Assembly (NCBI RefSeq): GCF_018977255.1
Contig: NW_024705561.1
Span: 1 to 34,512, forward strand
DNA: 34,512 nucleotides
DNA from: Callorhinchus milii
Lineage: Eukaryota
Reading direction: 5' to 3'
Position 1 is the stretch's first letter. Every line of letters begins with the position of its first letter. Positions 15,001 to 18,000 of this stretch are shown piece after piece. A program made the position numbers.

Positions 15001-18000
15001 ACCTGTGTACACTCTGAGGAATGGAAGTAAGTTTAAATCAACCGCTGGCGATATCAATTGAAATGAAGCATTAAATCAAAGAGTAGCTGAATGTTATCGT
15101 GACTGGTGTATGGGCAGCTGAGGAAAAGAAACTGTGAGCAACACGTTAATGCTAATATTACTTGAAATAAAAACATTCACTCATATTTCTGTAACATTCG
15201 TGCAGATTTGAGTTGTCAGTCACACCGCAGCAATGTAAACCCGCTTTACTCTCTCACTCACCTCCTCCCAGATGAACATCTTTAACCCACAGCAGCGTTC
15301 CTTATATTAAACAACAGATTGAAATACATATCGGAATCGATCCGATAACCTTCGCGTCACTCATCCCACGATATTCAGGTCCTCATTTCCAAATCTTGGG
15401 CACAGTTTCAAACACTTTAATAGAACTCTCGGCATCATTATACCCGAAACCCAGCAGCTGCCATTCACCGCGAACAAACATTATGGAAAGTCCTTTAGAG
15501 TAATCACCAAAAATATCACCAACAAAAACTAAAGAGAATAGTACATGTTATTGAAAGCAATGGCAGGTAAAAATCTTTAGCGTCGCTTAAACTGTGAGTT
15601 TTCCCGTCCACGAAGAATTCATTACATTATATAGGTGTTAAAGTGAAAAAAAACAAATATACAAAGAGACAAGTTCAGTGAATTGAGTGAGATAATGTCT
15701 GCTACTCACCATCCGTCACAGTCAACACGGTGCCTTGACCCATGTAGTCACTGTGCTACAGTCAGTGTGCTGCCCACTGCAACAACCTGCTGTGCGGGCA
15801 GGACACACAAACACAACCTTACTGTAAATGTTGGCTCTCCCAAACCAAATACAATACCCAATATATGTCTGTAACGTTCTGAAAACAATTGCTTGACTCT
15901 GTGTTTACCTGTTAAATGTTTGCATCTTTGCCAGTTTGCAGTGTTCATGTCAAACACGTTTTATTGTGACCAACAGATTGGAGATGAAATGTAATGTTTT
16001 ATGTCTATTAAATCTGGCAATTTGCTCAGCGCTCGGCAGCATTTTACGAATAACAAATCCCCGCATATTCAGTGGGACTCACACAAGCGAACAGAGTGAG
16101 AGATTAGCTGCTTTGGTGTTGGACGGTTTTTGTATTGACAGTTAATGCCGTGGTGTTTATCTCACTGTGCTGCAGTCAGTGTGCTGCCCACTGCAACAAC
16201 CTGCTGTGAGGACAAGGCACACAAATAAAATAGTAGTAAATGTTGGTTTCCCCAAACCAAATAAAGTGCACAATATATTTCTGTAATTTTCTGAAAACAA
16301 TTGCTTGGCTCTGTGTTTACCTGTTCAGTGGTTGTATTTTTGCCGGTTTGCAGCACTCATCTCAAACACATGTTGTTGTCAAGAACAGATTGAAGAATAA
16401 ATATGATGTTTTGTGTCTGTTAAAGTGGTAAAATCCTAAGCGATCGACACCATTTTACAAATGCCAGTTCCTCACGTATTCAGTGGGACCCACACAAGCG
16501 AACAGTGATAGAGATTAGCTGGTTTGGTGTTCAAGGGTTTTTGTATTGATTGTTAATGCTGTGTGTTGCTTGTCACAGTGATACACAATATGACAAAATC
16601 TCCTGCACAGGACGAACTAACAAATATTGACCCGGAATTCCTGGCAACGGCTGGTCCTCAGTTCACAGAATCCTTTGATGACTCCTGTGATATTTCAGTC
16701 AGAATAAATTCTTATGTTTTCCAGAGACTTTCGTTTAATGTCCGAACAGATCCAGAGACGTCAATTTCGTTGAGTACCATCCTATAATCCAAATTAACCG
16801 CAATAAATCTGCTAAACACTATGTTATTATCGATTATCGATTATCGATTTTCAGGGCCATTTATTTCGGTGTGTCGGTGTTGTTTGATGACTGGAGTCAG
16901 CAGTCTCTGTGGCAGGGGTTTTTGTATGAGGAGGTGGTTGTATGCAGCATTGTGTCTTTTCTTTACACAGTGATACAGTCCAATACAAATACTGATCCCC
17001 CATATGTGTACAATATCGGCTGCCAAAATTCACTGAAAGTGACTATTCTCCTCTGACGTGACGCAGAATCTGTCTCATAGTTTCCTCATAACAACAGAAA
17101 CATTATGCAATTATTTCCAACAGCTTGTGACTTGGTGATGTTTTTGAACCGTCATTTATTGCGGTTCTTCCCACCTCAACAGCACAGTGTCACTGACTAT
17201 CTGAAATCACAGAATACTACAGCACAGATAAGCAGTTCATTCACTTAAATCAAACAACGATTCAATGTGCGGGATCTGTCAGATAATAAATGTATCTTCA
17301 GCTTTTCCTTTAAACTTGGGCACAAAACAGCATTGACACCATGTTTGCCCCTCAGTCAGTTTAGGGTGGGAGGGGCTGCCTTTCTCCCCTTGTGTATTTG
17401 TAGGAGTTCAGCCCCGTTTCGTCTCACTGTGACGCTCTTGCACAATAATAGGTGGCGGTGTCGTGCACTGTCGGGCATTTGATGATCAGATCGAAGATGC
17501 TTTGGGAATCTTCTCTGATGACAGTGACACGGTTTTCAATCCCGGACCCGAATGACTCGATGGATGAGCCGTCATGTACGAGCAGCTTTTCCCGCTGCTT
17601 CCCGGGAAGCTGCCGGAACCAGCCCGTGTAATTTCTGCTGAGATCAATCCCATTGGTTTCACAGGTCAGTCTCAGGGCCTGGCCGGTTTTCCCGGTTAGA
17701 GTCGGCGGCTGTGTGAGAACCAAATCTGCCTGGACACCTGTAAATGATAAACGGTCAAAGATTAATGACTGTGAAATGTCCTGTTTCTGTGACATTGCGG
17801 AGAGAATAACACCGACACAGGAACAGTGAGACTGTCAGAATAATAGCACTCACGGGAGAAGGCAGCCAGCAACACACTGAGAGAAATCAGGGTCCTCATG
17901 TTTCTGGGCACTTGTCAGAACTGAGACTTGAGCCGAATAACCGAGGGACAGAGAGCCGCCGGACAGATGGCTTCAGTCCACAGTGACCGGTATTTAACAA

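Follow-up and report, generated by a model that had tools for sequence, protein, structure and literature searches.

Heavy-chain-only antibodies (HCAbs) are known from camelids, from elasmobranchs in the form of IgNAR and, as a less studied case, from an immunoglobulin (Ig) M cluster of chimaeras. Publications are cited here by identifier, each for the excerpt that was consulted. In the spotted ratfish, the holocephalan IgM HCAb gene COS5 is described as having lost its CH1 exon and duplicated its CH2 exon, giving four constant (C) domains (PMC3149040), and as a 'specialized H chain (COS5)' without a CH1-type domain (PMC2150980). With reference to Rast 1998 and Anumukonda et al. 2022, a 2025 paper names a 'single-domain Hydrolagus IgM V' (PMC12227049), and the term 'holocephalin IgM HCAbs' is used in a 2024 review (PMC11659936); among the matches listed in our literature search there was no later account of the chimaera HCAb. 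Here we describe an Ig heavy-chain (IgH) minilocus in 34,512 nucleotides of Callorhinchus milii DNA (NCBI RefSeq assembly GCF_018977255.1, contig NW_024705561.1, positions 1 to 34,512; this whole stretch is called the window), in which the joining (J) segment has Met at 15741..15743 in place of the conserved Trp103 (Kabat numbering; IMGT 118). To judge from the sequence of the whole cluster, this Met is probably the germline residue 103 encoded by the sole J segment of a cartilaginous-fish minilocus for an IgM-derived heavy-chain-only antibody.

Two bodies of work serve as reference points. The segments of shark IgH miniloci follow the order VH-D1-D2-JH-Cmu at intervals of about 400 bp (PMC2435157), and shark IgM normally has four Cmu domains, the form IgM1gj, without only Cmu2, pairing with a light chain (PMC4279169). 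Among the criteria for an HCAb in PMC3149040 are the absence of CH1, a domain by which the light chain is anchored and unpaired heavy chains are retained in the endoplasmic reticulum (ER), and the replacement of hydrophobic framework 2 (FR2) residues, which serve the pairing of the heavy- and light-chain variable domains (VH and VL), by charged or polar ones.

A single J segment with Met in place of Trp103

The cluster is a complete IgH minilocus of the cartilaginous-fish type, running from 17899 to 8621 on the minus strand, on which all of its features lie. Its order is leader, variable (V) exon, diversity (D) elements D1 and D2, a third D-like element (D3), J, a Cmu3-like exon, Cmu4 with a secretory tail and a first transmembrane exon (TM1). 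All exons are open, and all six splice junctions are consensus with matching phases. Each exon was searched separately; no joined spliced model was used in any search or fold.

The J coding segment (15710..15748, 39 nt) encodes Y-M-G-Q-G-T-V-L-T-V-T-D plus 1 nt, and with its borders marked by slashes it reads CACAGTG/AC TAC ATG GGT CAA GGC ACC GTG TTG ACT GTG ACG GAT G/GTGAGT. The plus strand carries CAT at 15741-15743, whose reverse complement is ATG, in frame in J (Met codon 15743-15741). The original prediction had placed the codons of Y-M-G-Q-G-T here, and both the codons and the coordinates 15741..15743 are confirmed; as to strand, the feature belongs to the minus strand. Replacing TGG by ATG takes two substitutions, as had been stated, the single-step intermediates being AGG (Arg, a variant found in camelid single-domain VH, or VHH) or TTG (Leu); this two-step route is code arithmetic and no evidence of history.

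The segment has two features of a heavy-chain J, a recombination signal sequence (RSS) with a 23-bp spacer directly 5' and a phase-matched splice donor. The RSS scan placed this 5' RSS at 15749..15787, with the nonamer GGTTGTTGC (consensus at 7 of 9 positions), the 23-bp spacer and the heptamer CACAGTG at 15755-15749, which abuts the coding end at 15748. The phase-1 donor GTGAGT that ends J (15709-15704; GAT G/GTGAGT at 15710/15709) fits in phase the acceptor AG/AA TGT at 11962 of the next C exon. A scan of the six frames of the whole window for the pattern xGxGTx[VLI]x[VLI] gave one match, the J itself, which bears out the claim that the cluster has a single J; a second copy of its 23-RSS exists, in front of a D-like element and not of another J. 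The W-G-x-G motif of heavy-chain J segments reads M-G-Q-G here, with G-x-G kept and the aromatic residue replaced, and the F-G-x-G version of light-chain and T-cell receptor (TCR) J segments is likewise unmatched at the aromatic residue. The J segment is genuine and not a chance match. A TCR or light-chain identity was considered for it and is ruled out by the mu tail and the VH-type V of the cluster. IgNAR J segments, too, are described as lacking the Trp.

The Met codon starts 5 nt from the J coding end, so residue 103 would be partly junctional and would be lost in trimmed joins. Untrimmed joins would carry the germline Met at residue 103, and in trimmed joins the residue would be encoded by the junction; trimming may often remove the Met codon.

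The cluster lacks Cmu1 and Cmu2

The J-C intron (11963..15709) is 3.7 kb long and contains neither an Ig-like exon nor an N; the window's sole N, at position 4600, is distant from the cluster, and none falls between J and the first C exon (exon A). Four kinds of search agree on its content. Among open reading frames (ORFs) of at least 35 aa between 8000 and 15750, only exon A and the second C exon (exon B) are Ig-like, with none in the intron. When exons A, B and V were compared with the window by tblastn, the only matches below E=0.01 were the self-matches and the cross-match between A and B, the next best match of a C exon in the window being at E=1.4; within 11963-15709, no match of the cluster's own exons was better than E=0.14. 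An Ig regular expression matched on the minus strand V, exon A and exon B only, and nothing in the intron. Finally, a Pfam search of the intron's 10 longest minus-strand ORFs, at E values up to 1, returned no Ig family.

There is thus no Cmu1 or Cmu2 exon in the cluster. In place of the four Cmu exons of a cartilaginous-fish IgM minilocus it has a Cmu3-type exon and Cmu4 only, and as in the HCAb criterion of PMC3149040 no CH1-like exon is present in a J-C intron that is free of gaps. Because Cmu1 is absent, the chain would have no domain on which a light chain could dock and could leave the ER unpaired.

The VL-facing side of the V domain is changed

The V exon (17432..17737) encodes a VH-type V-set domain that ends in YYCARA (Pfam V-set, E=2.5e-11) and is followed by an RSS, found in the RSS scan at 17393..17431, with CACAGTG, a 23-bp spacer and ACAAATACA. 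Its leader exon, read from the sequence, is at 17854..17899, with ATG at 17899-17897, the peptide MRTLISLSVLLAAFS plus 1 nt and the donor GTGAGT. Canonical Cys22, Trp36 and YYC are kept, and in phmmer the solved structures that match best are VH and VHH domains.

FR2 of this exon (17621-17580) reads WFRQLPGKQREKLL. In gapless phmmer alignments to solved VH domains (human VH), wfrqlpgkqrekll lies over wvrqapgkglewv, which in the standard Kabat numbering of the stretch gives F37, Q39, Q44, R45 and K47; at 37, 44, 45 and 47 the solved VH domains carry V, G, L and W. Of the seven positions that classically contact VL (37, 39, 44, 45, 47, 91 and 103), five therefore differ from VH, Y91 being kept, and three of these five are now charged or polar. 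Positions 37, 44, 45 and 47 are the hallmark positions of camelid VHH. Met103 is one of the five changes at the VL interface, because F37, Q44, R45 and K47 sit in the V of the same cluster, and the earlier suggestion that loss of the Trp marks a J freed from VL packing is supported by these residues and by the absence of a Cmu1 or Cmu2 exon. Measured against the FR2 criterion of PMC3149040, the alignment to solved VH shows the expected replacements at Q44, R45 and K47, plus F37 and M103.

The structural role of these positions is documented in engineered domains. Trp103 of VH lies buried in the middle of the interface, and a dimeric VH is shifted to monomer by V37F/Y or by W103R (bioRxiv 10.1101/2025.10.31.685826); W103R also stabilised an autonomous VH (PMC9388512). 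The VL-facing side of V would have been rebuilt by F37, Q44, R45, K47 and Met103, and because these residues are changed the V domain would act alone, as a camelid VHH does. Read together from sequence, Met103, the FR2 changes and the missing Cmu1 fit a coherent pattern, and Met103 is one symptom of a feature of the whole cluster.

Folded by AlphaFold2 on its own from its single sequence, the 98-aa V exon gave an unusable model, with a mean pLDDT (predicted local distance difference test) of 33.2 and a pTM (predicted template modelling score) of 0.19, and a search of the ESM Atlas with the exon returned generic V-set clusters from Chordata only. FR3 contains an additional Cys codon (17477-17475; Kabat about 82b), with Pro next to it on the 3' side (LIIKCPTVHDTATYYC); no frame of the three D elements has a Cys codon that could supply this Cys with a partner. 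Upstream of the leader, TAAATA is found at 17996.

The constant region is of the mu type

Exon A (11651..11962) is a C1-set domain of the Cmu3/Cupsilon3/Cgamma2 type (Pfam C1-set, E=9.4e-12) with a phase-1 acceptor and donor. In per-domain phmmer comparisons it scored 8.0, 39.2 and 38.5 bits with human Cmu2, Cmu3 and Cmu4, 16.7, 41.5 and 21.2 bits with Cupsilon2, Cupsilon3 and Cupsilon4 of chicken IgY, and 28.6 and 21.6 bits with CH2 and CH3 of IgG; with one IgA chain the last domain was best in phmmer (42.4 versus 33.5 bits). On these sequence comparisons exon A is assigned to the penultimate-domain type. It starts (E)CEQPTGGVKVSFLPP, and its TGGVKVSFLPP aligns with LGGPSVFLFPP at the lower hinge and CH2 start of IgG. 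A Cys at 11960-11958 is the second residue, in ECEQPTGG; standing directly after J, it looks like a built-in mini-hinge.

Exon B (10769..11160) encodes Cmu4 and the secretory tailpiece GKPSFVNLALVLMDTVNPCH followed by TGA (Pfam C1-set, E=4.2e-22). It matches human Cmu4 plus tailpiece with 100.7 bits over residues 3-127; the tailpiece aligns to that of human mu and retains the penultimate Cys. Two poly(A) signals, at 10695 and 10686, lie 75-85 nt past the secretory stop. For the membrane form, exon B has an internal donor, G/GTAAAC, at 10831/10830. The TM1 exon (8621..8751), whose ORF and splice sites were read from the sequence, reads ...SDNLWPTASTFIILFFLSIMYSAAVTLIK; Pfam gave no match for it, and we take it to resemble the transmembrane exons of other Igs. 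An AATAAA occurs 9 nt past the TM1 donor (8620-8590), and read-through would end the membrane form in ...TLIKVMRINYLTP. As in an IgM minilocus, the region combines a mu tailpiece that has the penultimate Cys with a transmembrane exon reached from an internal Cmu4 donor.

Three D elements, one of them from a tandem duplication

Three short D elements separate V from J. D1 with its RSSs (16917..16993) has a 5' 12-RSS (heptamer 16972-16966), the coding sequence TAAAGAAAAGA at 16965-16955 and a 3' RSS composed of CACAATG, a 22-bp spacer and ACAAAAACC. D2 (16536..16601) has a 5' 12-RSS (heptamer 16580-16574), the coding sequence ACAAGCAACA at 16573-16564 and, 3', CACAGCA, a 12-bp spacer and the same nonamer. 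D3 (16125..16201) has a 5' 23-RSS of the J type (GGTTGTTGC, 23-bp spacer, CACAGTG; heptamer 16169-16163), the coding sequence AGATAAACAC at 16162-16153 and a 3' RSS with the weak heptamer CACGGCA, a 12-bp spacer and a perfect nonamer ACAAAAACC. Their reading frames give (stop)RK, KEK and KKR for D1, TSN, QAT and KQ for D2, and R(stop)T, DKH and IN for D3.

The gaps between segments from V through D1, D2 and D3 to J are 467, 381, 401 and 404 bp. The layout is that of an IgM minilocus, with one V, two D and one J about 400 bp apart and its own Cmu, plus one extra D-like element. The RSS spacers permit V(23)-D1(12), D1(22)-D2(12), D2(12)-D3(23) or D2-J(23), and D3(12)-J(23). Both V-D1-D2-D3-J and V-D1-D2-J are allowed, with up to four joins from the three D elements.

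D3 is a copy of the D2-to-J-RSS unit. A tandem duplication covers 16573-15749, in units 16573-16163 and 16162-15749 that are identical at 332 of 411 positions; each unit holds a D coding sequence, its 3' 12-RSS, about 330 bp and a 23-RSS. Identity between the units is uneven: 38/39 in the 23-RSS, 25/28 in the 12-RSS, 266/334 in the DNA between them and 3/10 in the D coding sequence. The join falls exactly at heptamer/coding borders, with length unchanged. This matches the expected outcome of a hybrid joint, in which a germline cut by RAG joins the J 23-RSS signal end to the D2 5' coding end on the sister chromatid, and the duplication created a D with a reversed 23/12 pair of RSSs.

Predicted product and alternative explanations

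We regard the cluster as a putative working heavy-chain-only gene, a reading that takes about two-thirds of our confidence. In its messenger, J would splice in phase 1 directly onto the Cmu3-type exon, followed by Cmu4 with the secretory tail and TM1. In the predicted product, a short linker that contains Cys (TVTD-ECEQPTGG) connects V to Cmu3 and Cmu4. Its C domains would mediate dimerisation, for which the Cys at 11960-11958 is a candidate inter-chain bridge; the dimer would be roughly the size of a camelid HCAb and would exist in secreted and membrane forms. Complementarity-determining region 3 (CDR3) would be built from D and junctional sequence, J giving at most Tyr-Met, and would be unusually hydrophilic because the three short D elements encode mainly charged or polar residues. 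Antigen would be bound by a lone VH.

A bolder proposal, which we put forward tentatively and rate as possible at best, is that the two-C-exon, three-D arrangement is an antibody format not described before: V-Cmu3-Cmu4, of camelid size, with a hinge-like Cys. On that proposal the VH may have converged on the camelid residues 37F, 44Q, 45R and 47K, and the germline J may go beyond camelids in removing Trp103. CDR3 may be drawn from a dedicated set of three hydrophilic D elements, and the third of these may have been born when RAG, acting in the germline, joined the J RSS to the D2 coding end in a hybrid joint.

Several observations weigh against a working heavy-chain-only gene. The V exon scores 35.4 bits with V-lambda versus 38.8 bits with the best VH, the VL alignments being gapped. 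The replacement might also be general in the species, with Met103 in conventional clusters too. Met is still a hydrophobic residue, and in one engineered human VH neither W103S nor W103T discernibly affected dimerisation (bioRxiv 10.1101/2025.10.31.685826); for these two reasons Met103 alone is weak evidence.

Other contrary points are best taken together with the explanation that they favour, namely a decaying or silent IgM minilocus from which Cmu1-Cmu2 were deleted, whose changes in V and J, Met103 included, are drift under relaxed constraint, and which makes no protein. No canonical Ig octamer (ATGCAAAT or its complement, with at most one mismatch) is present within 600 nt upstream of the leader (18500-17900), and a search for a TM2 exon found none. 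Weak heptamers lie 3' of D2 (CACAGCA) and D3 (CACGGCA), one of the three frames is stopped in D1 and in D3, the J is very short, and FR3 holds the unpaired-looking Cys and the Pro. In the tailpiece, VNLALVLMD (10813-10805) has NLA where human mu has the NVS sequon. Against a silent relic stand exons that are all open, six splice junctions that are consensus and in phase, and the retention of Cys22, Trp36, YYC and poly(A) signals. Across the old duplication, moreover, the RSSs have been kept much better than their flanks (38/39 and 25/28 versus 266/334), and the changes in FR2 are not scattered at random but coincide exactly with VL-contact positions. Decay is therefore an unlikely explanation of the cluster.

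Less probable still is an ordinary light-chain-pairing chain in which Met103 is tolerated, with Cmu1/Cmu2 lost from the contig by assembly collapse or with the C region of another cluster being used. Assemblies of multicopy Ig clusters are error-prone, and the 3.7 kb from J to the first C exon compares with 6.3-6.8 kb from JH to Cmu1 in the nurse shark (PMC2435157); the hydrophobic character that Met keeps would suit pairing as well. Yet the interval between J and exon A has no N, the phases of the J donor and the exon A acceptor match, and F37/Q44/R45/K47 would disfavour VL packing, V37F/Y alone having turned an engineered VH monomeric (bioRxiv 10.1101/2025.10.31.685826). A sequencing or consensus error at a codon that truly reads TGG is scarcely credible, as it would need two substitutions, the neighbouring J, RSS and donor are clean, and the change fits the rest of the cluster.

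If the cluster is the heavy-chain-only gene that we propose, it offers a clean natural experiment, in the germline, on what a lone VH needs. The experiment combines loss of the light-chain-docking domain, changes at the FR2 positions that are changed in camels and a germline J without Trp103. Such a gene might serve as a new source of small binders of the VH type, and its two-C-exon format, together with a third D bearing a reversed RSS pair, would suggest that the minilocus organisation easily yields new receptor formats.

Surroundings of the cluster

The Ig cluster is flanked by two genes or gene remnants for G-protein-coupled receptors (GPCRs). One is an intact, intronless ORF of the rhodopsin family at 28884-29846 on the minus strand (320 aa; 7tm_1, E=7.2e-24), and the other a related GPCR fragment at 22623-23126 on the same strand (E=5.7e-08). 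A reverse-transcriptase fragment at 25116-25802 on the minus strand (RVT_1, E=2.3e-17) is probably the remnant of a long interspersed nuclear element (LINE). Upstream of the V promoter region, a minisatellite at 20385-20655 has 15 copies of an 18-bp unit, also scored as 36-bp and 54-bp units. No Rfam family was found in the window.

Comparison with known systems

A full-text literature search with four peptide motifs of the gene matched no paper. With the conventional shark IgM minilocus the cluster shares segment order, spacing of about 400 bp, one J, a secretory tail and a transmembrane exon. It differs from that minilocus and from IgM1gj in having a third D, in lacking both Cmu1 and Cmu2 and in the Met for Trp in J.

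The likeness to camelid HCAbs is one of product and of residues. Both have no CH1 in the product, in which V is followed by two C domains, and both have a Cys-containing linker before the domain homologous to Cgamma2. At Kabat 37, 44, 45 and 47 the residues tend towards F, Q/E, R and non-Trp, and position 103 is altered in some single-domain VH; the camelid variant at that position is Arg, not Met. Camelid genomes retain the CH1 exon, which is skipped, and camelid HCAbs draw on D and J segments common with conventional VH in a translocon locus. In the C. milii cluster, unlike the camelid case, the exon itself is absent, D and J are the cluster's own, and the C region is of the mu type with a tailpiece, not gamma.

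IgNAR has three D elements and four joining events, and its C domains are IgW-like. Like the cluster, it is a heavy-chain-only minilocus of cartilaginous fish without a CH1 equivalent, and it has five C domains (PMC3149040). An IgNAR identity is ruled out by the VH-type V, with its best PDB matches to VH/VHH, its YYCAR end and its full-length C'-C'' region, and also by the Cmu3/Cmu4 exons with a mu tailpiece. IgW was considered as well and rejected on account of the mu-type C exons.

The closest described case appears to be the IgM-derived heavy-chain-only gene of chimaeras, compared by description only. COS5 has a duplicated CH2 and four C domains, whereas the cluster described here has two C exons, with no Cmu1 and no Cmu2-like exon; the replacement of CH1 by a duplicated CH2 that marks COS5 is not seen, exon A scoring 8.0 bits with human Cmu2 against 39.2 with Cmu3. 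What COS5 and the cluster have in common is an IgM-type minilocus of cartilaginous fish that has no CH1-type exon, whose V is predicted to be single-domain, and which arose inside the cluster organisation.

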